Shown here one piece after another: positions 366-61,358 of a stretch of DNA of 64,000 nucleotides. A program made the translations under genes and the position numbers. The stretch comes from a virus. Under the pieces are notes generated by a model. It was not told the origin of the DNA and did not search any database. It was given only the letters and a program-made list of their open reading frames with translations. The stretch spans positions 1-64,000 of IMG/VR virus record IMGVR_UViG_3300020034_000004; one strand, given 5' to 3'. Within the stretch, counting starts at the first letter, position 1, and each line of letters begins with the position of its first letter.

Positions 366-803
366 TTAGAACTTAGACTCAATTACTACCCGTACCGGCT
401 CGCCCATGCGGGTGTTGACAATAGTAGGCTGGCCACACCCACACTGCACCAGTGATACCTGACAGTTATAGCACACCTCACGCAAGCTGCGCTCAACGCG
501 CTTGTTTTTGATTAGTTCAAGCTCGAAGGCGGCGTGCGTGTGATGATTGTACCTGTACGGCGCAATCTCTTGAATCTCCTGTGCACCATAAGACTTTGGG
601 TCACGCTTGACCGTGGTGACAGTCTTGGTTTCGCCCTTGGCGTCTGTGCGCGTCTCGGTGGCAATCGTGCCCTTGGGCCAGTCCGAGAACTGCATGCCAC
701 CCTCGGCGGCAGTCTTGAGCCGCTCATGGTTGACCAAAGAGATTCGCCCTCGGCTGATGGCTTCAATATGACCGTTATCCAATAGCCATTGCTTGGCTTT
801 CAT
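366..803 (-). CDS. Hypothetical protein with N-terminal RGRI (Lsr2-like) motif and Cys-rich C-terminus
   Basis: MKAKQWLLDNGHIEAISRGRIS...CYNC...CGC; ATGA overlap with upstream gene. Confidence 0.6.
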   Translation of the reverse strand: MKAKQWLLDNGHIEAISRGRISLVNHERLKTAAEGGMQFSDWPKGTIATETRTDAKGETKTVTTVKRDPKSYGAQEIQEIAPYRYNHHTHAAFELELIKNKRVERSLREVCYNCQVSLVQCGCGQPTIVNTRMGEPVRVVIESKF

Positions 804-1153
804 CGCTTGGCCTCCGCTACATAGATAGTGGTGCCGCAAACATACACGGCGGGAAAATGGTGGCCCATCAGGGCCTCCATCTTGAATTTAGTATTTCCGT
901 TGGAAGTCTTGCCCGCTTTGCGAGCAATGAAGAATCGCTCACCAATTCGGGTAATCTTGGTCAGATATGGCTCAATAGCCTCAGCAGGCTCACGCTGTTC
1001 TGTGAACTCATCCTCCAATTCACCAGCAATGGAGTCATCGGAAAACGTCACGTCAGACAGAGTGCACGCACCCATGCTATAAGGCTGCGCTCCCTTGCGG
1101 TGACGTTTAATAGTGATGTCAGCCTCGCGCACCCGCACAGTGACCTTTTGCAT
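800..1153 (-). CDS. Hypothetical protein
   Basis: ORF with GGAGG RBS, coupled to next gene. Confidence 0.65.
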   Translation of the reverse strand: MQKVTVRVREADITIKRHRKGAQPYSMGACTLSDVTFSDDSIAGELEDEFTEQREPAEAIEPYLTKITRIGERFFIARKAGKTSNGNTKFKMEALMGHHFPAVYVCGTTIYVAEAKR

Positions 1154-1183
1154 TATCCCTCCAAAGGGAATTGTTGATTAGCG

Positions 1184-1232
1184 TGTGACAGCAGGAATTG
1201 AACCTGACTAGCCCCAATATCTGGCCTGTCAC
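1184..1232 (-). ncRNA. Mini tRNA-like element (acceptor stem and T-arm, no D-arm)
   Basis: GTGACAG...CAGG-TTCAATT-CCTG-CTGTCAC-A. Confidence 0.45.
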
Positions 1233-1332
1233 GATGGTGCGTTAAATGATTTCTGTCGACGGGAGAGTGTGTCAGTTAACCATTACTCACCTGACATATC
1301 GTTACCGCCTTGACTTACTCTCACTTAGAATA

Positions 1333-1361
1333 ACCTTACTGCCTACCGGCCAATCTGTCAA
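1333..1361 (-). promoter_or_regulatory. sigma70-type promoter with GCCGGTA in spacer
   Basis: TTGACA-N17-TAAGGT. Confidence 0.65.
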
Positions 1362-1498
1362 GCGTCTAGCAAGTTTCTATTTCAGGCATTACCTTACACA
1401 TATTATTATTGTCGGTTGGCGGGTCGTATTCAACAGTGCTCGCAAATACAAACCAGCCCACCAATAGAGTCAATGCGCTTATGCCTGCAATTTGTAAT

Positions 1499-3183: not shown

Positions 3184-3259
3184 AATGACCCCTAAGTCAG
3201 TATTTGATGATGCCCTTTGTAAGGCTACCGGCCTTTGGCCGGTAGCCAAGCAAAAGAAA

Positions 3260-5410: not shown

Positions 5411-5440
5411 TGATATACCGGCCCGAAAGCCGGTATATCA
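5411..5440. terminator. 12-bp inverted repeat built on TACCGGC
   Basis: TGATATACCGGC-CCGAAA-GCCGGTATATCA right after the 5447 stop. Confidence 0.55.
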
Positions 5441-11762: not shown

Positions 11763-12137
11763 TTAATTAACCTCGATAGCTTCTGTAATGTTTGGAAATG
11801 ATGATGTAATACCAATTCGCCAACCATGAAACTTAAGGTTATATTTATGACCAATCTCAATTTGATTATACAAATCAGCGGACCTAAATTGTCCCTTCAA
11901 AACAGTATCAGTAACCTTGAACACACCACAATCTCTGGTGTACACACGCATATCAGATTCTGCCTGCCCGTCTCTGTACTTGGTTGTTCGGTCTTTATTA
12001 GTAATAGTACAAACTTTGGTTTCGCTGGTGTTATAGTCAACGATTAATACACCAATACCAATGACTACCAACAGTGAGATGACACCAATAATGATACCGG
12101 CCGGGCCGGTAATTGAAAAGCGATGTCTTGCTTTCAT
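11763..12137 (-). CDS. Membrane-anchored phage protein
   Basis: N-terminal TM; translational coupling. Confidence 0.7.
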   Translation of the reverse strand: MKARHRFSITGPAGIIIGVISLLVVIGIGVLIVDYNTSETKVCTITNKDRTTKYRDGQAESDMRVYTRDCGVFKVTDTVLKGQFRSADLYNQIEIGHKYNLKFHGWRIGITSSFPNITEAIEVN

Positions 12138-24289: not shown

Positions 24290-24518
24290 GTGCTACTTTT
24301 TGATTCTTACCTCGATTAGTCTCATGGTAGGGCATACATGTGGTGTATGCCCTACCATGAGAGCAGAAGGCGGTAGAATTAACTACCGCCCGGGAGTGCA
24401 CTCCCTGTATCGCCACCAGATACCAAAGCCTTGGGTCGTCAACCTGCCCAAGAAGGCCGGTACTCAGATTCCGGAAATGAGTACCATCTTAAGTCTTATA
24501 GATTTACCCAAATGCTAT

Positions 24519-26569: not shown

Positions 26570-26809
26570 TTAGTTCTCTTTTCTATTAAATTCTTGATTT
26601 TAACTACCGCCCAAACAGGCGGTAGCAAGATGAATACTATCATATAGGAAACGATACGCCTAATCATAGTTTCTGTACCGGCCAGATGGTTTCGGCCTTC
26701 CACATCTTATACTTATGGTCGTACTTAATTGTCCAACGTGACTTAGACGCCCAAGCCATATAGTGCACTCGATGAATTAGTTCATTCCATTGAGGACTCC
26801 AGGTAAGCA

Positions 26810-28348: not shown

Positions 28349-28376
28349 AAAAAGCCGGTACACTAAGTACCGGCTT
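28349..28376 (-). terminator. Terminator hairpin built on TACCGGC
   Basis: AAGCCGGTAC-loop-GTACCGGCTTTTT on minus strand. Confidence 0.65.
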
Positions 28377-37215: not shown

Positions 37216-37221
37216 AAGATA

Positions 37222-37523: not shown

Positions 37524-37554
37524 AAAATAGGCCGGTATATAATATACCGGCCTA
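37524..37554 (-). terminator. Perfect palindrome or terminator after tRNA-Tyr
   Basis: TAGGCCGGTATAT-A-ATATACCGGCCTA then T-run on minus. Confidence 0.6.
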
Positions 37555-37557
37555 CCG

Positions 37558-37729: not shown

Positions 37730-38044
37730 TTAGACTCTTTCAAGTCTACGCTTACGTAGTCTACGAGAAATCAATATTGTGGGTCTCTGATTACGTAAGT
37801 AGTTTTTCTTGTCCTGATGAGTAGTTAAGACTTCACCCTGTTGCACCTCTGTACGAGATGCCTGCCAGGAACTAAAACTACCTAAGAACAAAGCTATCAT
37901 AGAAACTAAAGAAACGAAAATAACGCTTTCCAACCAACCGAGGAAGAAAGATAATACTGTGAACGGTAACCAAAAACATGTTGACCATCCATGGAACCCC
38001 TTTAGTATATATGGGTCACCAATGATTTCCATTAGTTTCTTCAA
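37730..38044 (-). CDS. 2-TM membrane protein
   Basis: Two TM segments, basic tail. Confidence 0.6.
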   Translation of the reverse strand: MKKLMEIIGDPYILKGFHGWSTCFWLPFTVLSFFLGWLESVIFVSLVSMIALFLGSFSSWQASRTEVQQGEVLTTHQDKKNYLRNQRPTILISRRLRKRRLERV

Positions 38045-38045
38045 G

Positions 38046-38123
38046 TAGCGGGATACTGGAATTGAACCAGCTTATTGCTGAAGCTTATGAGGCTTGCCGA
38101 GATTTACCAACCTCCCACCCGCA
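38046..38123 (-). tRNA. tRNA-Met(CAU), irregular acceptor (initiator-like?)
   Basis: CAAGC-CT-CAT-AA-GCTTC; GCTGG-TTCAATT-CCAGT. Confidence 0.72.
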
Positions 38124-38233
38124 TGACTTTTTCAAGTAGTTCTACTTTATCATACTACAATGGCTCTGTCAACTCAATCGCACAGTTATGCAAAAATCAT
38201 CATTGGGAATTCGACAATGGTCATTTATTCTTG

Positions 38234-38302
38234 TAGCGCGTGAGGGTGATGCACCCTCCTATCAGTCCTTATGAGAGACTGCTGTTCACTGGAACCCGCG
38301 CC
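38234..38302 (-). tRNA. Atypical tRNA (CAU anticodon) with reduced D-arm and non-canonical T-loop
   Basis: AGTCT-CT-CAT-AA-GGACT; GAGGG-TGCATCA-CCCTC. Confidence 0.62.
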
Positions 38303-38472
38303 AGGCCAGCCTATTATTTATACTCTTGTACTGGAACAGAGTGAGTTGGTGGGGGCGTCTGTCAGCTTTGGATTATGCAGGAAACACGCCCCTTCAAACC
38401 TGCGTTATCGGTACATAGATATGCATCTCGTCTCCGACCTTCACATACAAGACTTCGAAATCTTGCAGCTTG

Positions 38473-38544
38473 TACTCCCAGAGGGAATCAAACCCTCTCC
38501 TAATGCCTGAGAAACATTTATACTTGTCGTTATACTATGGGAGC
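38473..38544 (-). tRNA. tRNA-Glu(CUC)
   Basis: AATGT-TT-CTC-AG-GCATT. Confidence 0.85.
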
Positions 38545-38634
38545 TTATTAAATTATTACATAGTTCTTCAATTAACCATTGCGCTACATACGCCTCTCTA
38601 TCCAATAGATAATCTAGTTCTATTCGAAAACAAG

Positions 38635-38715
38635 TATCGCAGACGGGAATCGAACCCGCAAGCCGAAGCATCTGATTGAAAGTCAGACCACCGTAACCAA
38701 TACAGTACCTGCGAT
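38635..38715 (-). tRNA. tRNA-Glu(UUC) with long variable arm
   Basis: TCTGA-CT-TTC-AA-TCAGA; GC-TTCG-GC arm. Confidence 0.87.
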
Positions 38716-38867
38716 ATAATGCCAAGCAGTTACAAAAGGCTGCAACGCTTGGCAGCATTATTTCAAAAACTAGATAATTCCGGAGAACATCTAGTAACAA
38801 TTGTGCAAACAAGCTGCACTGCCTTATCGGCGTAATAAGTCTATCTTACCATACCGACGAATGCCTG

Positions 38868-39134
38868 TCAAGCTATTTTGGCCGGTGCTAGTTTATTGTT
38901 CTTAACTACAACTAGTACTGTCTTATCCTGATACCATTCATTAATGTCTATACCATTATCTAATGCCAAAGAGAATGGACATTCTCTTAAGTCTTGATAA
39001 TCTTCTAAACAATTCTTGCTATGAAGAATGTAGACCGTTTCTTCTTTACTTACCGCCTTCGCAAAATGTGCACGAACGTGCCTTTTTATTCCAACAATTT
39101 TTTCAATTATTGATGCATCTACAATTTCAGTCAT
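38868..39134 (-). CDS. Hypothetical protein
   Basis: Coupled ORF. Confidence 0.65.
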   Translation of the reverse strand: MTEIVDASIIEKIVGIKRHVRAHFAKAVSKEETVYILHSKNCLEDYQDLRECPFSLALDNGIDINEWYQDKTVLVVVKNNKLAPAKIA

Positions 39135-39342
39135 TATTCGTTATCAAGTCTCTTTAGATTAGGATTTTGACCTTGCATAATTCCAACCTTACCAAGACGA
39201 ACCTTGATTTGACCGGGTAATGAATTATGCCACTGAAGCATATGTTCCTTTACTGTTCGATTCACGTCTTCATCTGTAGAATATGAACTCAGTACATAGT
39301 CAACAACAATTCCATCTTCATAAATGAACATTATGCTCCTTG

Positions 39343-39426
39343 TACGCCAGGTGAGGTTCGAACTCACGTCGGGCTTTCGCCATCAGTTTAAAAGACTGTT
39401 CCCATCGGCCACTAGGGGACTGGCGC
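39343..39426 (-). tRNA. tRNA-Lys(UUU) with long variable arm
   Basis: ACAGT-CT-TTT-AA-ACTGA; GGC-GAAA-GCC arm. Confidence 0.87.
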
Positions 39427-39463
39427 ATATTTTGTTTCAATTCACACTTATTACAAAGTTAAG

Positions 39464-39534
39464 TACCCCCGGTTGGAATCGAACCAACGTCTGCAAAGTA
39501 AGAGTTTGCGGCTAATCCCCTCAGCTACGGAGGC
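39464..39534 (-). tRNA. tRNA-Lys(CUU)
   Basis: GCAAA-CT-CTT-AC-TTTGC. Confidence 0.92.
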
Positions 39535-39633
39535 AGAGAATGAGCTAAACCATAGATTTAGCTCACCCATCAACCTATTCAGTTTCGGAGTGCTGTCACG
39601 CATTTATTCTCCTAGATGGTAAGTCATCACCGT

Positions 39634-39707
39634 GGGTGCTAGACGGGTACTGCCCCCGCTAAAACTTGAGTCACAGTCAAGCACCTCGCTTCTTGGCCTC
39701 TAGCACC
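39634..39707 (-). tRNA. tRNA-His(GUG), atypical T-loop
   Basis: 8-bp acceptor; CTTGA-CT-GTG-AC-TCAAG; T-loop GGCAGTA. Confidence 0.82.
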
Positions 39708-39867
39708 ATGTTGTCAATAGACAAATTATTGCAAGTGCTGGTCTGACTACCTCATTGGGTCATACAGACCGTACGGATTGGTTACCTTAGCAACACTTGA
39801 TACCCTGATATAACTACTTTAACACCATACCGGCCGTTTGTCAAGACCTCACATTATGTGGTTTGAT

Positions 39868-40500
39868 TCAGGCGCAGTTCACAGCGTCGTATCTACGATG
39901 CATTGCTGAATCACAAGCTGTCTTATCGTGATACTGTGCCCACCTCAGGTCCCATCTATTCTGATTGAAGATAGAAACACTAGAGCCACCAGACCAAATC
40001 TTACCACCCAAATGTTGACCCATCAATCTAGTGATGTATGTGGCAATTGCATTAGTACCGGCATAAATGACATCCGGCTGACAAGAGTACCTGTAATAAT
40101 TGTAAAAGATTGTCGGGCCAGTCTCATGCCTTGAACCATCACTTGTCAAGTTTTGATAACCCTGAGCACACCACGGATAATCGTTGGCTTGATATGCCTG
40201 CACTAGCCAGGTTCGTATAATCTGTCTATCTAGATAACCATAATCACCACAAGTAACACCAGTGGCTGGTACATTTGTATAAATAACACTAATTGCTGGT
40301 GATTCATTCCAGCTATTAGCTGCGGTATGAAAATATGATGGATAGAACGAACCAGTTGAATGGTCTTCTACACATACATATGGACTATAGAATCTATGAT
40401 TGTCAATCGGTACCGCCGCGTTTGCTGCTAGAGCGCCTGCCATCCAAAAAGCCATAACTAAACAGGCAAAAACGGTAAGTCTATTAAAAATTTTCTTCAA
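39868..40500 (-). CDS. Secreted protein resembling a catalytically degenerate matrixin paralog
   Basis: Signal peptide; layout like 5447..6100 but RLMGQHLGGKI in place of HExxHxxGxxH. Confidence 0.6.
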   Translation of the reverse strand: MKKIFNRLTVFACLVMAFWMAGALAANAAVPIDNHRFYSPYVCVEDHSTGSFYPSYFHTAANSWNESPAISVIYTNVPATGVTCGDYGYLDRQIIRTWLVQAYQANDYPWCAQGYQNLTSDGSRHETGPTIFYNYYRYSCQPDVIYAGTNAIATYITRLMGQHLGGKIWSGGSSVSIFNQNRWDLRWAQYHDKTACDSAMHRRYDAVNCA

Positions 40501-40544
40501 TTTTCGCTCTCCATATATGAATGTGGGGCCGAAGACCCACCTTG

Positions 40545-40615
40545 AGGGCTGAACGGGTACTGACCCCGCTTCTTCACGTTGGCAACGTGAGACATTACCT
40601 TTATGCTACCAGCCC
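40545..40615 (-). tRNA. tRNA-Gly(GCC), atypical T-loop
   Basis: TCACG-TT-GCC-AA-CGTGA; T-loop GTCAGTA. Confidence 0.85.
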
Positions 40616-40837
40616 GGAGTAACGAAATTTCCTTCCACTACCCTTATTTAAAGCCCCATATGTTTCGGTCAATGAATCTAACTGCTTAAGCTGCCGGTAT
40701 TAATTATAAAATCCAAATCAATAATGCTATGATAAGAAGAACACCAACAATAGTCCAAATCATATTATTCCCCCACCCACTTTAATCACCACCTAATACT
40801 TATAATAGAATAACATATAAGAATCTTAGTGTCAATG

Positions 40838-40910
40838 CGCCCCTGACTGGATTCGAACCAGCATTTTTCAGCTTAGAAGGCTGTTGAGTTATCCCTTACT
40901 CTACAGAGGC
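40838..40910 (-). tRNA. tRNA-Arg(UCU)
   Basis: ACAGC-CT-TCT-AA-GCTGA. Confidence 0.92.
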
Positions 40911-41347
40911 AGATGTAGCTGGATGGTCTTCGGATGCACTTAGGTCCTACTGGTCTGAATAACTGTGGTTCTTATGTTTCACAGCACTGACATTTCTGGC
41001 GAATACGCCTGCTCCTAAGGTCCAGCTACATGGTCCGGTATGTATTTTATCTCTCACTTTCCATACCGGCTCTCTATCGGGGGTTTAATACGAAGAGAGC
41101 CCCGATGTTAATATCTACTTAGTGCTTTATACAGTCTTTCGAATTGTGACTTGCCGTTACGTTGACAAGACGGTGAACAATAGATTTTACCGCCCACAAT
41201 CCATAAATGAGTCTTAATCTGTGTACCGCATTTTGAACAGTTCAATGTTTTATCTAGTTTTTATGGTCTAGCGACCCCGAGAGTGACAGCCTCTTGCTTG
41301 TCACGATTATATATCTATAGTATCACGTGACAGTCGTCACGTCAAGA

Positions 41348-41581
41348 TTATCGAGCAAGATATCTTACTCTGCGCTCAGCTTGTCTTGACTCATATGGAG
41401 TAGGCAAGCCTTGTGCGCGATATACATCATTTGCTGCTTTACGCTCAGCAGCGTCAGCAATATTTGCTTTCTTTTCAAGCTGTCGCTTTGCCCATGAGCG
41501 GGCGCGGCGGGCTTTAAGATTAACATTGCTCATACGCTTGTGGGCAGGATTGCCCTTGTTGCTTCGTTGTTGGTCGGCCAT
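41348..41581 (-). CDS. Small basic protein
   Basis: AGGAGGTG RBS. Confidence 0.7.
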   Translation of the reverse strand: MADQQRSNKGNPAHKRMSNVNLKARRARSWAKRQLEKKANIADAAERKAANDVYRAQGLPTPYESRQAERRVRYLAR

Positions 41582-41692
41582 CTATTAGACACCTCCTTTT
41601 CAGGTAGTTACCTAATCATGACCGTACCTCCAAAAGTTCATTTATATTTACCCTCCGATTTTTATCAGTGATTATGTTCAGTGATGATATTA

Positions 41693-42073
41693 TCAGTCCC
41701 ACAGATGGGAAAAGTATTGTACAAAAAGCTGCAGCGCTTTGTTACGCTTTTCCTCAAGTGCTCGTGACCAAGCGTAATAATTATTATCACTAAACTTGTA
41801 GGTATCCATGCTTTGCAGTTCAGCGTGAGCTTTGAAGCCGTCAATCATCTCGTCAAGAACAACAATCCACTCATCCATATTGACAAACCCGCCAGGAAAA
41901 CCAGCGCCAGTCTTAAAACGTTCAAGACCACCGACAATCACAAAAGCGAGGTAGTCATTGAAATTCCAAAAATCATATTCGGAAAATCCATTCTCACCAC
42001 GCTGTTTTAGATGCTCTTTGCGCTCACTTGGCTCAACAAAATCACTTGGGTCTTTGAGACTCATCAACTTCAC
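41693..42073 (-). CDS. Hypothetical phage protein
   Basis: W...LDEMI.GF...LF..YF..LWD. Confidence 0.7.
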   Translation of the reverse strand: MKLMSLKDPSDFVEPSERKEHLKQRGENGFSEYDFWNFNDYLAFVIVGGLERFKTGAGFPGGFVNMDEWIVVLDEMIDGFKAHAELQSMDTYKFSDNNYYAWSRALEEKRNKALQLFVQYFSHLWD

Positions 42074-42415
42074 TCCAATCTAGACCCTGGGCGCACTCAA
42101 GGCACGCCGGTATTTGAGTAGTGTTGTCTCCATCGAAACCTTTAATGGTCAACCGCCCGGTTGCAGGCACGTTGTTACATAATGAACAGAACTCAACACG
42201 CTCAATTGCGTTTTGGTCCAAGGTCTCTATACTCACAATCAACTACCTTTACTCCGAGGTTATCTCCAACACTAAACGTGTCTTGGACTGCATCCCATGC
42301 GTCACCTTCATCGAAGGCATCGATTTCGAGCTTCATTATTACTTCATAAATAAACTTCTTCATGGAGCTTAGTATAGCACTAAAGGATATCTAATGCCAT
42401 ACCGGTTTTTCAATG

Positions 42416-42463
42416 AAAAGACCTAAGAGAACTCAAAGCCTTACCCTATTCTCTTAGGTCTTT
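42416..42463 (-). terminator. Long inverted repeat after tRNA-Arg(ACG)
   Basis: AAAGACCTAAGAGAA...TTCTCTTAGGTCTTT. Confidence 0.6.
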
Positions 42464-42464
42464 G

Positions 42465-42541
42465 CGCGAGTGAAGGGATTCGAACCCCCATTTTCATTCC
42501 GTTATGCACTAATGGTTCGTAGCCACCGCCATTACACCCGC
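42465..42541 (-). tRNA. Atypical tRNA-Arg(ACG): 7-nt linker instead of D-arm, D-like hairpin in variable region
   Basis: GCGGGTG/CACTCGC; TAATGGC; GGTGG-CT-ACG-AA-CCATT; CAT-AACGGA-ATG; GGGGG-TTCGAAT-CCCTT. Confidence 0.75.
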
Positions 42542-42572
42542 ATTGTAATCGAAACTGTGATATGATGTAGTC

Positions 42573-43094
42573 ATGAATAATAACAGTTCGAAACATACAT
42601 GTTTGCAGTGTTTCAACGAAACAATGAATCCTAAATTCTGTTCACGTTCTTGCTCTGCAACCTATAATAATACTATCATGCCCAAGAGGCAGCGTCAAGT
42701 CTGGGTTTTCAATTGTTCTCGATGCAATAAGCCTCAAAAGAAAAAATCTTTATCTGGATTATGTTCAATTTGTTGGAATGATGAACAAGATAAAATTGCT
42801 GGAGAAATGACTCTTGGAGAATCCATAAAAGAATTTGCAAATCCCAGAAGTCGATACAATACTGTTAGACATCATGGACGAAAACTTTCCAAAATTTATA
42901 ATCAATGCCAAGTTTGTGGATATGATAAAGTTCTTCAAGTTTGCCACATCAGACCAGTCTCTTCATTTCCTCTTGATACCCAAATAAAAGAAATAAACGC
43001 ACCTGATAATATTGCAATATTATGTCCCAATCATCATTGTGAACTTGACCGAGGATTACTCGCACCCTCTGAGATACCAAATCGAGCGGCATGA
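42573..43094 (+). CDS. HNH endonuclease (leaderless)
   Basis: FCSRSC, CQVCG, HI.P, N...LCPNHH; TGaTATGAT-N6-ATG. Confidence 0.88.
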   Translation: MNNNSSKHTCLQCFNETMNPKFCSRSCSATYNNTIMPKRQRQVWVFNCSRCNKPQKKKSLSGLCSICWNDEQDKIAGEMTLGESIKEFANPRSRYNTVRHHGRKLSKIYNQCQVCGYDKVLQVCHIRPVSSFPLDTQIKEINAPDNIAILCPNHHCELDRGLLAPSEIPNRAA

Positions 43095-43095
43095 G

Positions 43096-43200
43096 ATTGT
43101 CTGGTACTCGCCAGAAGCTCTACCATTGAGACTTACTCTGCACTTACCTAGGATGGAGAGCCCGGATTCGAACCGACAACCTCCGGGTTTCCCAGACAAT
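43096..43200 (-). ncRNA. Circularly permuted tRNA-elbow RNA (YrlA-like module without Ro-binding stem)
   Basis: T-arm, then CTCT/AGAG stem, then D-arm CTC-AATGGTA-GAG, closed by CCGGAG/TTCTGG and ATTGTCTGG/CCAGACAAT. Confidence 0.7.
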
Positions 43201-43204
43201 AACG

Positions 43205-43275
43205 AGCGGATAACAGGACTCGAACCTGCTTCTCAAGATTGGAAATCTTGGGCACAACCTATATACCATATCCGC
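43205..43275 (-). tRNA. tRNA-Gly(UCC)
   Basis: CAAGA-TT-TCC-AA-TCTTG. Confidence 0.92.
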
Positions 43276-43333
43276 ATTTGGTTCCGTTGTTTTGTTAACA
43301 GTATGGCGGCTCAACGGTTTCCATAAATTCCGG

Positions 43334-43405
43334 TGCCAGCACAGAGACTTGAACTCTGTTCCTTGGGACTTCACTCCAAAGCATATCCATACATGCTCTG
43401 CTGAC
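43334..43405 (-). tRNA. tRNA-Phe(GAA), unusual anticodon loop
   Basis: TTGGA-GT-GAA-GT-CCCAA. Confidence 0.75.
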
Positions 43406-43495
43406 AGGCACCAGCGGGTACCGACGCTTCGGTATACGTTCCCTAACTGGTACTAACTACTATAACATGTTTAAGAAGGCTTGTCAAGTATCAAT

Positions 43496-44020
43496 TTATG
43501 TACCGTCGTACCAAGCAATTCCAAGAGCTAAATTGTATACCTGCTCCGAAGTCATATCATTAGCACTTTGTGTTATAGCCAAAACATCATCTTCAACCAA
43601 AGTAGGATTGAATCTACCCCATCTTCGAATATCTTGAAAGTTACAAGCTAAACGAAGAGCGTGTCTTTTTCTTTTGAAGTCGTTACCCTCGGTTAGTGCA
43701 AATGATTTAATTGTCCTCAAATACCTTTCCCATACACCTGTACCAAGAACATAATTATTTCTAAATGCAGAAATCTTATCCCTTACCGGCATTTGACTCA
43801 TCATAGCTTCACAGGCTTGTGGTACCCCAGACTCTACCTGCATCAGCCAAGTTCCAAAATCTACCACAACGGAATCAACTCCGTCAACAATGCTTTGCTT
43901 AGCATATTTTGCTCTGGCAGTCTTGACCTTTGAAACGACGGTATAGTAGTCATAATCACTATTGTCATGGTGTAAACCATACAATCTACTTCCATGAATT
44001 GTTTTGAACAATATTTCCAT
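43496..44020 (-). CDS. Pol-beta-type nucleotidyltransferase (RlaP-like)
   Basis: HGSRLYGL....SDYD; K..HALRL. Confidence 0.82.
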   Translation of the reverse strand: MEILFKTIHGSRLYGLHHDNSDYDYYTVVSKVKTARAKYAKQSIVDGVDSVVVDFGTWLMQVESGVPQACEAMMSQMPVRDKISAFRNNYVLGTGVWERYLRTIKSFALTEGNDFKRKRHALRLACNFQDIRRWGRFNPTLVEDDVLAITQSANDMTSEQVYNLALGIAWYDGT

Positions 44021-53608: not shown

Positions 53609-56600
53609 TCAGATAATAGTTGCTCGTTGTAGGTAATCAGCTAATTCAGAAGGCATTTTACGTTTAGGAGGAGTAATTACTTTGCCTGGTCTTTGCTGCT
53701 CAACCTTTTCAGCCTCTTCTTGACGCATCTTACGTCTCAAGTCTGCATACGTCAAAACTTCAACTTCCATGTTCACTGGCTTAGGAGTCAACGACACAGC
53801 GTTGAAGATGGCACCACACACTGCATCGGATAAATCCTTGCTGTTGTGAACAAACACCCCGCCTGAAATGGCAAAGTTCTCATATTCCTCAACCTCAAGG
53901 TCATAAACAGGAACATCAATCGCCAAATGAACCGGAACTACTGTGCGAATTTTGTGATTGTCACCAGCTTGAGAATTGATTGGCATCAACCTATCAATTC
54001 CCGGTCTCAAATCCTTGGCATCTTTGTACTCTCCATTTCTAAGCATCCATCGGTGGTCAGGCGTACAACGAGTAACAGAACCGTTGTCCAGAATTACATC
54101 AACAAATTCATTAGTGTATTTACTTAGACGCCCTCGCGCCCTGCCTGGAACAATTCTTCCATCAGGGGTTGAGGAGTAAACCCACACCTCAGAACCGGCT
54201 AACTCTGAAATCATTGGCCTTGTTCCATCTAATAGAGGAATTCTAGTCTCTCCTACGAAACATCCTTTTCGAGGGTGGTCAACTTTTTTCTTAACAAGCT
54301 TAAGCTGTCCAAGTTCATCAACAAGTAGCTGGACCTTCGGTCCAGCTAGGCGATGGTCATACATAACAGACAAGAAGTCGTCATAATGCTTTAATGCTAC
54401 TGACAAAACATCTGTTTTGATACCGTGCTCATTTTCTAGAATATTCATAGTGTCGTGACTATTATGGGTCACAAATCCGTCAGCAATAAACTCTTCGTAT
54501 TCTGGCACGCTAATGTCGAAAGTTTGTTCGTTTCCAATGGACTGGATATTTTTGATTTTCACCCACATTTGACCATTGTCAAAGACCCATCTTTCTTTGT
54601 ATTCTCGACTCTCCACAAGACTCAATGTGTTCTTTCTATCAATAGAGGGCTTGATAATGGCTAGAACCCTTTCCGCTTTTTTACCTTCGAAAGTCAATCT
54701 GTGAACCTCTCTTTCGGGAGAGTGACGCTTCTGACGCAACCTCGTTGGTTCTAGTTCAAGCGATAGAGAAATCCATACCAACTCCTTGACAAGTTCTTCA
54801 CTTATAGTATCAACAGTCAGGCGGTACCGCGTCTGACCTGACTTATCAATATAAGTCTGGATACCACCATCTCCATCAATATACCCGGCCATAAAGGCCG
54901 CACGGATTGAGGCTGAACCATTCAGTACAGAATGAGGTACTGTTTTATTTGCAGACTTGGCTGGAGTCAGCCCAGCGATTCTCATTCTTTCAATCATGTC
55001 TTTGTCCCAATAAGTGTAAGAGTAAGTGTCAACCTTTGAGCCAACGGTCTTGTCTTGAATCTTTCGTTGTACCGTATTCTTGAATCCCCACCCATCAACC
55101 ATTGCATCATGCATTCTGATTCGGAACTGCTCATCAGCAGTGGTAAAGTTGATTTGCTGATTTTTCCTATCATTAATCCAGCCGTCTGCAATCAAGCCAC
55201 CCAAAGCATAAGCTTGGCTCTCGGTAATGGTGTCTACCCCGGACCACTCGTGAGTATTGTCAAGGAGCATTTCGTCTTCAATTGTCAGTTCTCCCATAGT
55301 TACCCAGCCCCTCTTCGTTAACACTCTATGATTTACCGTTGCCTCAAACTCATACCCCAACCTCGTAGTTACCCTGAATACCTCCTGAATACCGGAATCT
55401 ATTTTGGCTTCTACCTTTGCTATTCCATGTCTGGTACTTACTTCATCACCAACCTGAATATCCCTCATTCTTACCGGGCCGGACGGTGTGGACACAATAG
55501 CATTACCCTTTACGCAGTTCCATCGGTCGAAGGTAGTTAATTTAATATCGAAACCTCGCCTACGAAGAGCAATGATGTAGTCTCTAACGTCAGCAAAGTC
55601 AACAGATTTAGATTTAGTAGGTGTCCACCATCTAACTGCGTCTACGACTACGAACGGATGAATTTCTTTATAGAAATCTGAACCGATACTAATCTCTACC
55701 CACTTTTCCACGTGAGCAATAGCTACAGCACAATGGTCATGCTTTTGTGCAAGGTCAACGTGAATAAAATATCTCACGCCTTCTTTTGGCTGAAACTTAT
55801 CCAAGAAGATTCCATCTTCGTCTACACCATTTTGTAAAATGAATGCATCTTCGATTGCTTGCTTGTTCTTAAAGAATCCGTCAGACAAGTTGGATGGCAT
55901 ACACGCAAAACGACCCAATGCGTCTCCAGGGTCATCTGCGAAGTCTCTTGTATAGTCTTGAATCTTTCTATTTGGATTAACTTCCCAAGACGGACGACGC
56001 AGGGCAAATGTCTTACGATGACTGTATCTAAGGATATGGTCTTCTTCCCAAGATACATCAACATAATTACCTTCGATTTCTCCAAGGTCAGGGTCTAGGT
56101 AAAGACGCTCTGTCCTAGTAATAACTTCTTTCTCAGCAATTTGTGCGTTGTAACGCTGCTGAATAAAGTCATCCTTGTAACGAGGGAATGAAAGCAATAC
56201 TAGTTTACCAAAATCAGGGAACCTAGATGTAATCGAACCCCTATACATCTTATAAATACCTGGGGCTGTCTTTTTCATTGCTTCTTCGTCATCGGTCATG
56301 CCTTCGCTTGGCATGGCAAATCCAGAAATCTCGTCCAAGATAACAACTAATGTGTTATATCCTTCGAACGCCTCTCGTTCAGAGTGACCAGAATAAACGG
56401 TTACGTTCTTATCGAATTCGATATAATTTGCCTTGGGGTCATATTTACCAGCGAACCATGGACAATTCTCAATCTTAGTCTTAAAGTTCTTAAAGAAAAC
56501 TCGGAACGCCTGGTCGGCGTTAATAGCAATATTCAAAATGTCAATAGTGTCTCCGGTCTCATTTCCATAATATCGAGCCGGGTCTTTAAGGCAAAGCAAT

Positions 56601-58015
56601 AGATAAACAATATACGCCACAGCGATGGTAGAGGTGAAGTCTTTACCAGAGTTATTTGTAATAATACCACCAGCATTCAGGACACCCTCAACGGCCACAG
56701 TTGTACACACCGTGTTCTCTTCAAAGCCTATATATTCCACACTTTCAATTCTATCAAAACGGTTATTTGGATACATTCCTTTAACATCAATATTTAGAAG
56801 ACGTTCAACTTTATCATTCTTGCCGGGAATATCCTTGATATTCTTTATAAGAAATTTAGCAATGGATGTGTCAGTAATACAAACCCTATAGTTTGCATTA
56901 TGTTTACCATCACTACGTTCTTGTCTATGTTTCTTAAATTTACTAATATATCCAGTTTTAAGCAATGCAAGATGTATGCCTTTAATGCATGACTCGGAAG
57001 TCATTTCAATACCAATTTGAGCTTGAGTTAATTTTGTTGTGCCATTTCCTATTTTCTTACCCGGAGCAGTGAATGAAATCCAGCCATCAGTAGCAATAAC
57101 ACCTTTAATTAATTCATGCATATTATCGTTAGTCATAGATAGCCATTGGTCATTCCATTGCTTTTGAATATTATATTCTTGAATTAAACCATGCTTTATA
57201 AACCATGACATCATGGCATTGATTCTGATTTGCCAGCATCCTTTACCAGAGGTTAGATACGCAACATTACCTCCCAATGATTCTACAATTCTGACTATAT
57301 CAGATTGCACTTCAGGAGTATTATTTGTAAACATTGGATTTTTATACCCTGATTTTCCCCTTTTAGCCCAGCTACCGTCTCCAATCATATATCCAATTAA
57401 TCGTGCCTCATCAGAAGTTATCTCGTATGGAGTTTCTTGCTCACTCCAACCGACCTTAAGTTCAATCAAGTCTCCCTTTTCTAATTGAGTAGCAGCAACA
57501 TCTTGTGACTGCTTCTTAAGAGAATATGCCTTAGTGTGTTTTGTATTTTTCCATGTCGGAGTTTTATGATTTGGCCCACAATCAAAAGAATATCCATGTT
57601 TTGTTGTAACTCGATAAATCTCATCTGCCCCTTCATCAAAAAAGGGATAGGCAGGCTGGACCTCATCACGAGAGTCACACATCCAACCATCTTTACCCAA
57701 AGCATAAGAATCTACATAACCCTTATCAACTGAGTAGAATTTTTGTTTTGGAGAAAAATTTCCCTTGCCTAACTGCATAACAACTTCGTTGCATGTTTGC
57801 TTAAATCGCTTATGACCTTCCTCTTCACCATACAGAGATACCAAGGTGTCTTCTCTATAGATTTGAGACATAGCCTTTACCAGAGAGTACTGATGCTTAG
57901 ATAGTCTTCTAATATTAAGGAATCTATCAGAGGTTACAAATTCTTCAATATCTACCGGCACCTCATCCCATTCATCCTCTGACAAAGCATTAAAAAAGTC
58001 TAGAAACTCAGTCAT
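53609..58015 (-). CDS. terL: Terminase large subunit with three inteins
   Basis: Walker A LGKG|SGKD, Walker B VILDE, HVDLA nuclease Asp, KDLSDA; spliced product about 606 aa. Confidence 0.93.
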   Translation of the reverse strand: MTEFLDFFNALSEDEWDEVPVDIEEFVTSDRFLNIRRLSKHQYSLVKAMSQIYREDTLVSLYGEEEGHKRFKQTCNEVVMQLGKGNFSPKQKFYSVDKGYVDSYALGKDGWMCDSRDEVQPAYPFFDEGADEIYRVTTKHGYSFDCGPNHKTPTWKNTKHTKAYSLKKQSQDVAATQLEKGDLIELKVGWSEQETPYEITSDEARLIGYMIGDGSWAKRGKSGYKNPMFTNNTPEVQSDIVRIVESLGGNVAYLTSGKGCWQIRINAMMSWFIKHGLIQEYNIQKQWNDQWLSMTNDNMHELIKGVIATDGWISFTAPGKKIGNGTTKLTQAQIGIEMTSESCIKGIHLALLKTGYISKFKKHRQERSDGKHNANYRVCITDTSIAKFLIKNIKDIPGKNDKVERLLNIDVKGMYPNNRFDRIESVEYIGFEENTVCTTVAVEGVLNAGGIITNNSGKDFTSTIAVAYIVYLLLCLKDPARYYGNETGDTIDILNIAINADQAFRVFFKNFKTKIENCPWFAGKYDPKANYIEFDKNVTVYSGHSEREAFEGYNTLVVILDEISGFAMPSEGMTDDEEAMKKTAPGIYKMYRGSITSRFPDFGKLVLLSFPRYKDDFIQQRYNAQIAEKEVITRTERLYLDPDLGEIEGNYVDVSWEEDHILRYSHRKTFALRRPSWEVNPNRKIQDYTRDFADDPGDALGRFACMPSNLSDGFFKNKQAIEDAFILQNGVDEDGIFLDKFQPKEGVRYFIHVDLAQKHDHCAVAIAHVEKWVEISIGSDFYKEIHPFVVVDAVRWWTPTKSKSVDFADVRDYIIALRRRGFDIKLTTFDRWNCVKGNAIVSTPSGPVRMRDIQVGDEVSTRHGIAKVEAKIDSGIQEVFRVTTRLGYEFEATVNHRVLTKRGWVTMGELTIEDEMLLDNTHEWSGVDTITESQAYALGGLIADGWINDRKNQQINFTTADEQFRIRMHDAMVDGWGFKNTVQRKIQDKTVGSKVDTYSYTYWDKDMIERMRIAGLTPAKSANKTVPHSVLNGSASIRAAFMAGYIDGDGGIQTYIDKSGQTRYRLTVDTISEELVKELVWISLSLELEPTRLRQKRHSPEREVHRLTFEGKKAERVLAIIKPSIDRKNTLSLVESREYKERWVFDNGQMWVKIKNIQSIGNEQTFDISVPEYEEFIADGFVTHNSHDTMNILENEHGIKTDVLSVALKHYDDFLSVMYDHRLAGPKVQLLVDELGQLKLVKKKVDHPRKGCFVGETRIPLLDGTRPMISELAGSEVWVYSSTPDGRIVPGRARGRLSKYTNEFVDVILDNGSVTRCTPDHRWMLRNGEYKDAKDLRPGIDRLMPINSQAGDNHKIRTVVPVHLAIDVPVYDLEVEEYENFAISGGVFVHNSKDLSDAVCGAIFNAVSLTPKPVNMEVEVLTYADLRRKMRQEEAEKVEQQRPGKVITPPKRKMPSELADYLQRATII
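53843..54262 (-). mobile_element. Mini-intein (140 aa, no endonuclease)
   Basis: CFVGET...CTPDH...VYDLEV...FVHN|S. Confidence 0.92.
54461..55516 (-). mobile_element. Intein with LAGLIDADG endonuclease (352 aa)
   Basis: CVKGNA...ATVNH...LGGLIADG...AGYIDGDG...VTHN|S. Confidence 0.93.
56651..57760 (-). mobile_element. Atypical intein with LAGLIDADG endonuclease (370 aa) in Walker A
   Basis: Starts NFSPKQ, GPNH, IGYMIGDG, GVIATDG, TVCTTV, ITNN|S. Confidence 0.87.
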
Positions 58016-58559
58016 TGTATACAACTACCGCTTCAACCGTTTCGGTTACCTTGCTTAACTTATGACCAACGTTTTTCCTGCAATCAGGACATAGGTCGTT
58101 TCTTAAAATCTCAATCAAAATGTGCTGCTTTTCTTCCATTTCAGCAACCTGGTCACCCATATCGGCGGCGTCTAGAAGACCAGCTTTTTGCAAAGCATCC
58201 AAACGGTTCTTCTCTAACTCAGCAACTAGCTTAATTGCATTAAGCTTTTGTTGTACCTTTTGAGAAGTAGTTCCGTTAGCAGTTAAATCATTTTCAATTT
58301 GTTCCAATGTCTCATATGACTTTTTAATCAAATCATCATAATGAATGTCCATGTTGTTGAGTGCTTCTAATGCTCTATCAGTACCGACTTTCGAGACGGT
58401 TACTGTTTGATTGAACTCTTCTAGTAATTCAACGACTCTTTTTCTCTGAATACCTGTCGCCTTGGCGATGACAGTTGGTGTATTGCCTTGCATACGCAGA
58501 GTAGCCACACGTTCCATATCCTGGAAGTGTGGCGCGTCTGCTAATACTAAATCGGTCAT
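58008..58559 (-). CDS. HTH protein upstream of terL (probable terminase small subunit)
   Basis: N-terminal HTH, coiled coil, position. Confidence 0.6.
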   Translation of the reverse strand: MTDLVLADAPHFQDMERVATLRMQGNTPTVIAKATGIQRKRVVELLEEFNQTVTVSKVGTDRALEALNNMDIHYDDLIKKSYETLEQIENDLTANGTTSQKVQQKLNAIKLVAELEKNRLDALQKAGLLDAADMGDQVAEMEEKQHILIEILRNDLCPDCRKNVGHKLSKVTETVEAVVVYND

Positions 58560-58729
58560 AGAGAATGCCCTCCGTTGCGGGTGGGACTCCAAACAAGACC
58601 TCTAAAGTTTAGTTCTCTAGTAAGCTTGTTTCCACATTTTGTGCAGTTCTGATTGTCACGGTCGTCAATTGGGACGTTGTGTTCGAACTGTACTTCACAT
58701 TCTCTACAGTCATAATCATAGTTTGGCAT
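58556..58729 (-). CDS. FmdB-like zinc-ribbon protein (57 aa)
   Basis: MPNYDYDCRECEVQFE...CTKCG. Confidence 0.8.
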   Translation of the reverse strand: MPNYDYDCRECEVQFEHNVPIDDRDNQNCTKCGNKLTRELNFRGLVWSPTRNGGHSL

Positions 58730-58752
58730 AATTCAGTATACCACGTTTTCAA

Positions 58753-59301
58753 TCATTTAGGCATAGCGAGTACTCTGCGTGAGAATTCGCCAATGCTTCT
58801 TACTCTGCGTTCAACTTTAACGCCTTCATTCCATGGTCTGGTAATCAGAAATGCTTTTGTACCAACTGCGTTTAGTGCTTCATAGTTCTTAAGGTTATCT
58901 TCTACGAAGACATCTGTCTTGACGACAGTCTTATCTTCTGAGAATGTTAGAGAATGATATCTATACCCTCGCGTGTCCAGCCACTTCTCGGTAAGCTGTT
59001 CAGCTAGTCCTGGTCGGTCGGCAAATCCTCTATGCGTGATAATGTGAATTTCGTGACCAGCATCATGTAGATTGTTCAATGCTTCTACCGCGCCGACGAA
59101 CGGAGCATTATTGAAAATGACACCTGCCTCGACACCTTCTTTCCAAAACTCCATCCACTTCTCATCTGACCATCCCCAGTCTCGCCAGAAGTTGTAATTG
59201 TAGATGTCGCATTTTAAGTCATGGCCTTTGAGCCTAAGATACATATTAACTCCAACCTGAAACATCAAATTGCAACCATCTAGGTCGACACCTATACGCA
59301 T
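58753..59301 (-). CDS. HAD 5'(3')-nucleotidase-like
   Basis: GVDLDG, ITHR, VEDN, PWN. Confidence 0.85.
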   Translation of the reverse strand: MRIGVDLDGCNLMFQVGVNMYLRLKGHDLKCDIYNYNFWRDWGWSDEKWMEFWKEGVEAGVIFNNAPFVGAVEALNNLHDAGHEIHIITHRGFADRPGLAEQLTEKWLDTRGYRYHSLTFSEDKTVVKTDVFVEDNLKNYEALNAVGTKAFLITRPWNEGVKVERRVRSIGEFSRRVLAMPK

Positions 59302-59858
59302 TACTTAATCCTTTCTAGACCGAGACCTTCGAACCATGAGATTAAAACTGCGCGAAGATAATCCAAATCTCTGTGATTATCAATATATTCATCAAATTTC
59401 CAGGCATCCAGCGCGGTCTCTGAAATGTGATTATTGATTGGAACAACGCCTGGACGCTCAACTCGATATATCATACCTTCACGTAACTTAATAGCAAATG
59501 CTTCATTTGGGAATCTAACGTCTGTAACTACGACATTCGGACCGGTAAAGTTGAGGGTCGAATCTACCCAAATATTCTCACCTAAGATTTCTCTACCTAC
59601 TTCAGTACCCAGATTTTGCAGTAGTCTTCGAATCTCATCCTTGTATATTGTTTCTTTATATCCATCCCATCCAAATGTATCAATAACTTCTTGAAGATAT
59701 TGAGTGGTATTATATTTATCTACAATTGGATTCAAGGCATAAAGACATTCACGAAGCTTATCTGCAAATGCCACCTCCTCAAATCCAAATTCTTCAATCA
59801 AAATCTTAGCTACTTCATTCTTTCCTGCGCGAGCGTAACCACTAAGTCCTATTAGCAT
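59301..59858 (-). CDS. Deoxynucleoside monophosphate kinase
   Basis: GLSGYARAGK, FAD.L, R.LLQ.LGTE, TDVRF.NE, H.SE. Confidence 0.9.
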   Translation of the reverse strand: MLIGLSGYARAGKNEVAKILIEEFGFEEVAFADKLRECLYALNPIVDKYNTTQYLQEVIDTFGWDGYKETIYKDEIRRLLQNLGTEVGREILGENIWVDSTLNFTGPNVVVTDVRFPNEAFAIKLREGMIYRVERPGVVPINNHISETALDAWKFDEYIDNHRDLDYLRAVLISWFEGLGLERIK

Positions 59859-60526
59859 TCTAACACCCTCTGTCCTCTTTGATTGGTTCGATGTAGCCAC
59901 TCGTGTACGGCTACTGTTTCTTCTGGATATTCCCGGTCAATATTTACTTCCGTACCAGCTTCGACATCAGACCAATGAAGCGGATTGAAAACATTTCGAT
60001 GGAATGTCTGTACTGGTCCGTATTCACGAATTGCATGCTCTAACAACTGTACACCAGTTGTTGCGTTCATGAAAGCCCCCGGCATCTCAAAGTAACGTTT
60101 TGGTAACAACTCAATTACTTTCTTGAAAAACGGATGCCCTGGTGGCGAATACATTGTCATATTAACTGGATGGATATCGTCTTCCATTGCCAAAGCGGGC
60201 TGGTCTTTATCAAATTCCAATGTGTCCAAGGACTTCAATGGCTTCATATCTGTATTGAAGTAAAACCCACCATTGTTGTAAAGTAATTCATAATCTACTA
60301 CATCTGCGACATGAGTATAAAATGCAACCATATCTGCATTTGGAAGGCGGGACTGCTTGTACATCTCATCTAATACCGCCTGGTTCTCCCAGCGAGTGTC
60401 ATAAATTTCATCTTCCAGCCAATCGTATAGCTCGTAACCAGGATTTAATTCTTCCCACTGCTTACCATATTCAATATACCTCTCAGGCATCTTGCTGCCT
60501 AACCAAATTCTATGAATTATTGTCAT
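59852..60526 (-). CDS. Glycosyltransferase family 32-like
   Basis: IHRIWLG, AD...YE.LY..GG.Y..TD, TG..L. Confidence 0.85.
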   Translation of the reverse strand: MTIIHRIWLGSKMPERYIEYGKQWEELNPGYELYDWLEDEIYDTRWENQAVLDEMYKQSRLPNADMVAFYTHVADVVDYELLYNNGGFYFNTDMKPLKSLDTLEFDKDQPALAMEDDIHPVNMTMYSPPGHPFFKKVIELLPKRYFEMPGAFMNATTGVQLLEHAIREYGPVQTFHRNVFNPLHWSDVEAGTEVNIDREYPEETVAVHEWLHRTNQRGQRVLEC

Positions 60527-61358
60527 TTGCTAACTCCCTGTATTTATCCAATATATTTGTTTCACTTAACAGATAATCCCTCTGATGATAAAATGAAAAA
60601 TGACTGATTAAGCTATTCGGAACAATTATATTTGGCCTTTGCAGTTCGTAGGGCTTATTAATTGTGTGCCAACCTTCTTCTTCTCCACCCAGTTGCCCCT
60701 CGACCTTCTTATACTCGCTACCAAACTGAGCAAAGCAAGACACGCTGAATTGCTGACCAACAGCTAATTGAATGCTATGGTGCATGAATAATTTATCAAC
60801 TTGTTCAGTTTTAATCATCTTTAATAAATGATTATGAATATTCTCAGCAAAATGAGCATCCGCCCAACCTACCGGGTCCATACAATGATTACCAACGAAG
60901 CCCCACCAAGATGGCATCTGTTGCCCCTGTTGTAGATAATATGAACATACTGCATTATTCCAAATAATTGGAAATACAACAAATGGAAAAGGATTGTCTA
61001 TTCTCTGCTCTACTAATCTTTGAATGGCATTCTTTTCAATCCAAACAATATCGTCATCCATTCTTACATAGATAGTGTCTGATTCTTGAGTATACTGATA
61101 AAAACGACCGGTATTCATTTGTTTAGGAAACAATACTTCTCCTACCGGCCTTTCGAACGTTTTAATCCAGTCATGCTTTTTCTCTAGGTCATATCCATAT
61201 TGCCTATCTGATTCTTGATTTGAGTCTGTATTTATCCATAGGTGCCATTCATCTATAACACCAGCAATCTTATCGCGAGCCAGATATTTATAAAGAATGC
61301 TTGCAGTTAATTCTCTGCCCCATGGTGTGAAGACTACTACTTTTTTGTTTCTAATCAC
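60510..61358 (-). CDS. GT-A-fold glycosyltransferase-like
   Basis: TPWGR, YVRMDDDIV DxD motif. Confidence 0.7.
   Translation of the reverse strand: MIRNKKVVVFTPWGRELTASILYKYLARDKIAGVIDEWHLWINTDSNQESDRQYGYDLEKKHDWIKTFERPVGEVLFPKQMNTGRFYQYTQESDTIYVRMDDDIVWIEKNAIQRLVEQRIDNPFPFVVFPIIWNNAVCSYYLQQGQQMPSWWGFVGNHCMDPVGWADAHFAENIHNHLLKMIKTEQVDKLFMHHSIQLAVGQQFSVSCFAQFGSEYKKVEGQLGGEEEGWHTINKPYELQRPNIIVPNSLISHFSFYHQRDYLLSETNILDKYRELANDNNS

Follow-up and report, generated by a model that had tools for sequence, protein, structure and literature searches.

The first 64,000 bp of the 97,489-bp IMG/VR record IMGVR_UViG_3300020034_000004 (hereafter the window), which derive from an uncultured virus found in soil metagenomes, are studded with the heptamer TACCGSC, where S is G or C. 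We find that this word is a DNA signal under positive selection rather than a codon artefact, and that it is read by a factor that the phage itself encodes. As a plausible though tentative assignment, we propose that the copies are priming sites of the phage's DnaG-type primase, which would move together with a phage DnaB-type helicase along the lagging-strand template; here we infer both the assignment and the primer. By its gene order, which matches that of Streptomyces phages of the Stanwilliamsviridae, and by its DnaE, which is about 60% identical to theirs, the virus is, as judged from sequence, an uncultured soil relative of that family. The record, referred to below as G000, was judged to be 74% complete.

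Counted on both strands, the window holds 98 dispersed copies of the word between positions 393 and 62433, 68 on the plus strand and 30 on the minus strand. Sixty of these are TACCGGC, for which dinucleotide shuffles averaged 3.6 and never exceeded 8, and the remaining 38 are TACCGCC, against a shuffled mean of 3.45. The original prediction, made by eye, had put the two forms at about 60 and about 30 copies; the first figure proved exact in number and position, the second was somewhat low, and the over-representation is borne out. The whole record carries 140 copies (81 TACCGGC and 59 TACCGCC), and the two forms are by far its most enriched 7-mers (11.8-fold and 8.6-fold, respectively), with all of their one-base variants near background (1 to 27 copies). 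The word often extends to TACCGSCC, the 8-mers TACCGGCC and TACCGCCC being enriched 24-fold and 14.5-fold. Since nearly all G000 genes lie on the minus strand, the sense strand mostly reads the G-rich form, GSCGGTA, and the base that follows this form is most commonly G (about 35%). On the other side, positions -9 to -4 relative to TACCGSC are poor in G and rich in pyrimidines, and the word as a whole sits in a footprint of about 20 bp of weak flank preferences; both features are seen in both coding orientations.

The excess cannot be traced to the proteins. With genes defined by simple open reading frame (ORF) calls, 113 of the 140 copies lie within genes, where they occupy all three reading frames and both orientations, and others are intergenic. 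When synonymous codons were shuffled within genes, so that proteins and codon usage were kept, about 21 copies were expected where 113 are seen, and a codon shuffle put the expectation for the G000 genes at about 15. The original prediction had named loss of the enrichment after codon or dipeptide correction as the outcome that would overturn it, and the enrichment persists; its view of the word as a selected, genome-wide DNA signal is therefore upheld. Resolved by orientation, the enrichment over synonymous shuffles is 5.0- to 5.6-fold in G000 and 3.1- to 9.4-fold in four relatives described below. About 20% of the positions in G000 at which the encoded protein is compatible with the word do carry it, rising to 36% in the context (A/G)-G-(codon starting with A), and the corresponding fraction is 24-37% in the four relatives of the clade compared with 2.5-6% in cultured family members. 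A codon or dipeptide artefact is thus ruled out by the synonymous shuffle together with the saturation of compatible positions. A repeat or mobile mini-element was also considered as the source of the word and rejected, because the flanks of the copies are unrelated and the sites lie in frame inside conserved proteins.

An alignment-based IMG/VR search yielded four relatives, G001 to G004 (DnaE identities of 70, 70, 70 and 58%), which form one DnaE clade with G000 (support 82/89); searches of IMG/VR by rIIA or by single-protein DnaE patterns returned no close relatives. Our comparison of the clade covers these five genomes, and many further relatives at 65-73% DnaE identity are listed in Logan/ENA. 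In each of G001 to G004 the two forms of the word again rank first among 7-mers, with 51, 35, 76 and 105 copies in 19-45 kb versus 0-8 for the reversed control, which corresponds to 1.8-2.7 copies per kb, and this at a GC content of 49-52% compared with 42% in G000. Within the DnaE gene, some sites are common to up to all five genomes (for example A-G-M encoded as GCC GGT ATG) and others are specific to one lineage, a pattern that looks like turnover under continuing selection. That the word might instead be a by-product of composition, mutation bias or codon habit, with nothing reading it, is a remote prospect: coding constraints by themselves do account for much of its roughly 2:1 strand bias, but they leave an enrichment of at least fivefold over synonymous shuffles, the background level of every one-base variant, the retention of one word across 42-52% GC and the mutual repulsion of same-strand neighbours, and the word stands alone rather than being one among many favoured GC-rich words.

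This repulsion also indicates how the word is read. Pooled over the five genomes, same-strand pairs 25-300 bp apart are depleted (88 versus 127 expected, P<0.001), and opposite-strand pairs at the same distances are not (83 versus 86 expected). The word therefore seems to act strand by strand, because a reader blind to orientation would make neighbours on either strand redundant. Spacing per strand is more even than random, with a mean coefficient of variation (CV) of 0.80 versus 0.94 (P=0.002), or 0.75 versus 0.93 when G000 is left out; gaps average 0.46-1.0 kb on the main strand and about 1.3-2.5 kb on the other. These data are compatible with priming at Okazaki-like intervals, although they are not specific to priming. 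The roughly 2:1 strand bias is largely predicted by coding constraints alone, yet once codon use is corrected for, all five genomes show the stronger enrichment for the G-rich form on the sense strand (5.6- to 9.4-fold versus 3.1- to 5.0-fold), and the antisense orientation is likewise enriched 3- to 5-fold over synonymous shuffles. In a further relative, the complete 133-kb genome G005, the orientation of the word flips where gene direction and GC skew flip.

A phage protein that binds the word in double-stranded DNA, whether as a nucleoid or counter-silencing protein, a stoperator-type regulator or a marker of self and non-self, would account naturally for the G-or-C degeneracy, for the weak footprint of about 20 bp in both coding orientations, and for the copies found in promoter spacers and gene-adjacent hairpins. 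We nevertheless consider it rather improbable, given that only same-strand neighbours are depleted, where an orientation-blind binder would affect both strands alike, that 113 of 140 copies lie inside genes, and that no clade-specific DNA-binding gene was seen in the regions compared. The nucleoid or packaging protein put forward in the original prediction, taken as blind to orientation, is weakened by the same asymmetry. FtsK-type guidance was rejected as well: no FtsK/SpoIIIE gene (PF01580) was found in the 97 kb, both orientations are enriched 3- to 9-fold and the skew is modest.

The reader does not appear to belong to the host. Five plus 301 Actinomycetota genomes were screened (11 of them unpublished and used only as aggregate counts), and in none of the 306 was the word enriched; the ratio of word to control was 0.2-2.6, the word was usually the rarer of the two, and it reached at most 0.9 sites per kb. 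As a signature of the host the word is thus rejected for the sampled Actinomycetota, to which this screen refers. A second line of evidence comes from cultured phages isolated on a single strain, S. griseus ATCC 10137. Two Samistivirus phages of this strain carry TACCGGCC (24 and 23 copies versus 2 and 6 for the control), Loccivirinae phages of the same strain carry ACCCGCC (51-65 copies versus 12-17), and each group is poor in the other's word. Because phages of one host strain carry different words and the sampled Actinomycetota genomes show no enrichment, we conclude that the reader is phage-encoded. A host factor, be it a host Chi system or a defence that spares word-bearing DNA, is accordingly highly improbable; what can be said for it is that the screen covered a sample of Actinomycetota to which the true host of the clade may not belong, against which stand the 306 genomes with a ratio of at most 2.6 and the different words of family members from one strain. 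These observations, along with the phage's own recombination genes, likewise tell against a host Chi as the Chi-like site that the original prediction had entertained.

The words of the cultured phages are members of a wider set of dialects within the family. TACCGSC itself is not enriched in cultured family members (about 1.0-fold over synonymous shuffles). In its place G005 carries CACCGGSC (73 copies, 6- to 8-fold), the Samistivirus phages Bmoc, Mildred21, NootNoot and Daubenski carry TACCGGCC (23-29 copies, 3- to 7-fold), and the Loccivirinae phages Annadreamy, Blueeyedbeauty and Comrade carry ACCCGCC (51-65 copies, 5.6- to 7.3-fold), with a weaker excess in BillNye. Like TACCGSC, these words are dispersed inside genes and survive the synonymous shuffle. 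All follow one layout, in which a variable first base precedes ACC and the remaining bases are exclusively G or C (TACCGSC, YACCGGCC, CACCGGSC, wACCCGCC), and the G-poor, pyrimidine-rich flank 4-9 bases upstream is common to TACCGSC, the Bmoc word and the G005 word. Since the dialects share this layout and three of them share the flank, they suggest a single type of reader with a drifting specificity. A search for a gene specific to the word-bearing clade (G000 to G004 compared with BillNye, Bmoc, G005, Mildred21 and Annadreamy) gave only small unassigned ORFs or frame artefacts. Genes common to the dialect-bearing relatives and absent from the Loccivirinae (RlaP-like, Ro60, endonuclease VII, HNH, DUF3307, MazG, DUF7455 and KTSC) were set aside as candidates, as none is an obvious DNA reader and the Loccivirinae carry a dialect themselves.

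Some related phages show departures of other kinds. In a low-GC sister clade from IMG/VR (loci L028-L102, about 36% GC, DnaE 52-54% identical), TCCGCC is in a weaker excess of about 3-fold, and its complement GGCGGA stands 9:1 on the sense strand, about 3-fold over synonymous shuffles. The same clade almost lacks CCGG: counting both strands, 1.42 Mb contain 12 copies against the thousands predicted from base composition, which probably reflects restriction avoidance. ACCCGCC, for its part, is nearly absent from the Samistivirus phages Bmoc, NootNoot and Daubenski (0, 4 and 4 copies per roughly 132 kb, with about 15 predicted and 8-11 for the control), so that one word is enriched in some phages of a host and avoided by their relatives on that host. 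Another over-represented word was met in the unrelated rIIA-bearing phages L014, L016 and L018, where GAACCAA is about 10-fold in excess (24-26 copies in 20 kb).

Among phage-encoded candidates we favour the primase and helicase because together they form a machine that repeatedly reads one strand across the whole genome. The replication and recombination genes of G000 comprise DnaE, a DnaG-type primase, a DnaB-type helicase, SSB, a UvsX-like recombinase, a Cas4/RecB-like exonuclease and RuvC. The primase (379 amino acids; G000 74640-75779, minus strand, outside the window) has Zn_ribbon_DnaG (CHC2 zinc ribbon), DNAG_N and Toprim domains, and the helicase gene adjoins its gene. In the proposed mechanism the template site would be the G-rich form 5'-GSCGGTA-3'; its 3' A would be cryptic, that is, recognised without being copied, and the primer would start pppACCGSC. 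If forks move with transcription, the sense strand would be the lagging-strand template, and the site would be favoured there. A primase that needs such a long word would lead selection to write it, through codon and amino-acid choice, wherever the proteins allow, and primases that had drifted in related phages would leave drifted words. T7 primase (gp4) reads 5'-(G/T)GGTC-3', with a cryptic 3' base, and makes the primers pppACCC and pppACCA. The position of the proposed cryptic 3' base is exactly the one that varies between the dialects, and a strand of the primase zinc ribbon differs between dialect groups, reading AFAV(D/N)K, SFSVSK or SFSVSR. It is possible, and we advance this with more caution, that a DnaG-type primase with an evolved requirement for a template of 7-8 nt forces upon the genome a priming code with a site every 0.5-1 kb, and that each Stanwilliamsviridae lineage co-evolves its dialect with its primase. 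Of the readers named in the original prediction (a nucleoid or packaging protein, a primase or Chi-like site, a modification target), the primase is the one that fits best, and the others have lost ground.

Several observations weigh against this assignment. To our knowledge, DnaG-type primases need only a trinucleotide (3-5 nt in T7), and we know of no precedent in the family for 7-8 nt; the selected word is of this length and is not a trinucleotide core with a cryptic base, so that only the variable base and the ACC layout fit. Phylogeny alone could produce the zinc-ribbon differences, with which it is confounded; just 4 columns of the alignment set the word-bearing clade apart, and overall the primase of G000 stands nearer to that of Annadreamy (49.6%) than to that of G004 (43.8%). 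The Samistivirus word occurs once per 4-6 kb, which is too sparse for it to be the only priming site, and G000 taken alone is not more evenly spaced than random (CV about 1.0). With almost all genes running one way, the directions of transcription, replication and coding cannot be told apart. Finally, G-or-C degeneracy is typical of double-strand readers, and the gene for the reader may possibly lie outside the sequenced part of a record that is 74% complete.

A different direction-sensitive enzyme of the phage, for instance one providing Chi-like control of a phage or phage-modified nuclease or helicase, a T5-like site-specific nicking enzyme or a packaging motor, would also explain strand-specific reading, a phage-encoded reader and the dialects. 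The base composition of the G-rich form is close to that of known Chi words, a recombination set is present (the UvsX-like recombinase, the Cas4/RecB-like exonuclease and RuvC), and relatives have T5-like long terminal repeats, G005 having direct terminal repeats. In Chi-rich phages Chi is the commonest octamer, at about one per 1.9 kb (PMC12315714), but these phages (P1 and LLS) are the ones without recombination genes of their own (Zheng et al. 2025, PMC12315714). We regard such an enzyme as unlikely, though worth keeping in view, since no helicase-nuclease was found and the exonuclease, a small PD-(D/E)XK protein, is split by inteins; moreover, a nick at each site would sever the DNA wherever opposite-strand pairs lie less than 25 bp apart (about 18 such pairs in the five genomes), and for packaging one or a few sites would be enough.

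The preference for the G-rich form on the sense strand could alternatively mark a signal that is coupled to transcription and read on the non-template strand, as the RfaH-recruiting ops element is. The preference is seen in all five genomes and flips with gene direction in G005, G is commonest after GSCGGTA at about 35%, and GGCGGTAG, the 8-mer into which the CC variant (GGCGGTA, minus strand) most often extends, exactly matches the initial 8 bases of E. coli ops. Even so, we think this quite improbable: the antisense orientation is enriched 3- to 5-fold too, the 97 kb yielded no NusG/RfaH-like gene, the nnTG continuation is missing, the other dialects are unlike ops, and one site per operon would suffice.

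We judge it very improbable that the word serves to direct a sequence-specific DNA modification, be it methylation, glycosylation or some other hypermodification. Asymmetric words of 6-8 bp are typical of modification enzymes, and a dNMP kinase, a 5'-nucleotidase, MazG and three glycosyltransferases are encoded; yet modification gives no reason for enrichment or even spacing, and no N6/N4 (PF01555) or C5 (PF00145) methylase and no ThyA-type hydroxymethylase (PF00303) was found in the 97 kb, which represent 74% of the genome. Nor do the glycosyltransferases track the dialects: Annadreamy has them and carries a different word, and Mildred21, with a methyltransferase at that locus, has a weak form of the same word. 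The original prediction's suggestion that the glycosyltransferases might modify the word is weakened on both counts.

The word also turns up in settings other than coding sequence, and copies in genes, in promoter spacers and as arms of palindromes, all three anticipated by the original prediction, were confirmed. There are seven inverted pairs, hairpins with stems made of the word. At 3226..3244, TACCGGC-N5-GCCGGTA has the word in both arms of an extended stem, ggcTACCGGC/GCCGGTAgcc. A hairpin at 5416..5435 has a 13-bp stem (ttgataTACCGGC ... GCCGGTAtatcaa), lies 11-24 nt past a stop codon and is terminator-like, with a U-rich tail on the sense strand. The palindrome TACCGGCC-g-GGCCGGTA occupies 12095..12111, and a divergent pair, GGCGGTA-N8-TACCGCC, occupies 24369..24390. 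An intergenic hairpin, TACCGCC-N6-GGCGGTA, is found at 26605..26624, 39-52 nt past a stop codon. On the minus strand, GCCGGUA-N7-UACCGGC followed by UUUUU (28354..28374), 2 nt past a stop and 28 nt before the next start, resembles an intrinsic terminator, and a hairpin with an 8-bp stem, GGCCGGUA-N7-UACCGGCC (37531..37551), lies directly downstream of tRNA-Tyr (37557-37639). Several of these hairpins, past stop codons or the tRNA and with U-rich tails, look like terminators; a simple terminator scan listed none of them, and the likeness is one of sequence only. Two sigma-70-like promoters that fit TTGACA-17-TAnnnT have the word in the spacer, one with its copy at 1344 and the other, TTGACA-17-TAAAGT on the minus strand at 39816..39844, with its copy at 39828-39834. 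Hairpins of another sort recur in the terminal-repeat regions of G005 (1-11.3 kb and 122.5-133 kb) and Bmoc (0.8-10.4 kb and 122.6-128 kb), where a GC-rich hairpin (for example GGCCCCTTCGGGGGCC) precedes the invariant 9-mer CCGCCCCGG by a few bases; this unit returns every 400-600 bp or so and looks like a repeated regulatory unit of early genes.

Parts of the record are poor in the word. The terminase large subunit gene (53609..58024, minus strand) contains three inteins, at amino acids 90-452, 850-1168 and 1255-1394, with boundaries from alignment to intein-free relatives. As originally observed, these inteins (2.5 kb) lack TACCGGC, and they hold a single TACCGCC, at 54820. Two more inteins, delimited in the same way, interrupt the small PD-(D/E)XK protein that is the Cas4/RecB-like exonuclease (G000 64235-66991, outside the window; amino acids ~74-405 and 530-831). 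Across the five inteins of the record there are 2 sites in 4.4 kb versus 6.3 expected (P about 0.05), and such word-poor inteins, as recent invaders, fit a slow build-up of the word in resident DNA. A second word-poor stretch (58753..62961, minus strand) encodes the 5'-nucleotidase, the dNMP kinase, the three glycosyltransferases (one of DXD type, one of family 25 and one other) and a nucleotide-sugar epimerase. Elsewhere G000 encodes rIIA/rIIB, Ro60, an RNA ligase, siphovirus tail genes and MazG, together with 29 transfer RNAs (tRNAs) and a transfer-messenger RNA (tmRNA). Contigs from a second soil study, compared over positions 24001-44000, represent a strain about 0.7% diverged, at which only about 2 differences are expected within word sites. 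Relative to window positions 24245-25468, 32113-32694 and 33176-33487, this strain skips 467-616, 580 and 310 bp; the skipped segments lie in the tRNA-rich region, around tRNA-Leu genes and beside the tmRNA, which suggests indel polymorphism.

If the primase assignment is right, a long, evolvable specificity within the DnaG family would be a new finding, and it would explain codon and amino-acid choice at about a fifth to a third of the compatible positions. Priming specificity, and perhaps replication direction, would become predictable from sequence alone, and differing dialects could keep related phages apart at the level of replication when they co-infect one host. Whatever its identity, the dialects offer a direct way towards the reader, since culturable phages of the same host differ in their word and swaps are feasible; the large actinophage family concerned includes many cultured Streptomyces phages that are tractable in the laboratory. 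Words selected genome-wide are few (Chi, uptake sequences and KOPS are examples), and every one of them has revealed a DNA-handling machine. A literature search gave no description of such words in the Stanwilliamsviridae, nor of over-represented primase sites, and a preprint on family members makes no mention of motifs or modification.

Set beside known systems, the word shares features with several. Like the KOPS and SRS words of FtsK and SpoIIIE and the DNA uptake sequences, it is short, over-represented genome-wide and selected for a DNA-handling machine, but KOPS and SRS have a cognate translocase and a strong polar skew, whereas the skew of G000 is modest and the word has no link to a host genome. 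The stoperators of cluster A mycobacteriophages, bound by L5 gp71, are likewise numerous, asymmetric, phage-specific and oriented with transcription, and their specificity varies among relatives; they are, however, 13-14 bp long, number 20-35 and are mostly intergenic in temperate phages with a repressor, in contrast to 7-8 bp, about 140 copies in 97 kb, a mostly intragenic placement in all frames and no repressor seen. With ops the agreement covers only the first 7-8 of the 12 nt of GGCGGTAGnnTG, which acts on the non-template strand with a NusG paralogue. The nick sites of T5 are confined to one strand, whereas here both strands carry sites, some in close opposite-strand pairs. As in Chi-rich phages, the word is the commonest of its genome, occurs about once per 1-2 kb against codon expectation, is G-rich and is biased in orientation; unlike it, Chi is read by host RecBCD, enriched in the host and the same for all phages of one host, and the Chi-rich phages lack recombination genes where G000 has the UvsX-like recombinase, the Cas4/RecB-like exonuclease, RuvC and SSB. 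For DnaG-type primases, neither a genome-wide 10-fold enrichment nor lineage dialects were found described in the literature. The primase sites of T7 gp4 and NrS-1 have several points in common with the reading that we favour, namely a phage-encoded reader, direction-dependent reading of a single strand and a need for the site repeatedly along the genome. With T7 gp4 the proposed primer would share a pppACC start after a variable cryptic base, and for the length of the site there is a precedent in the NrS-1 primase-polymerase, an enzyme of another family (AEP, archaeo-eukaryotic primase), which recognises the 8-nt 5'-TTTGGTTA-3' (PMC8718748).

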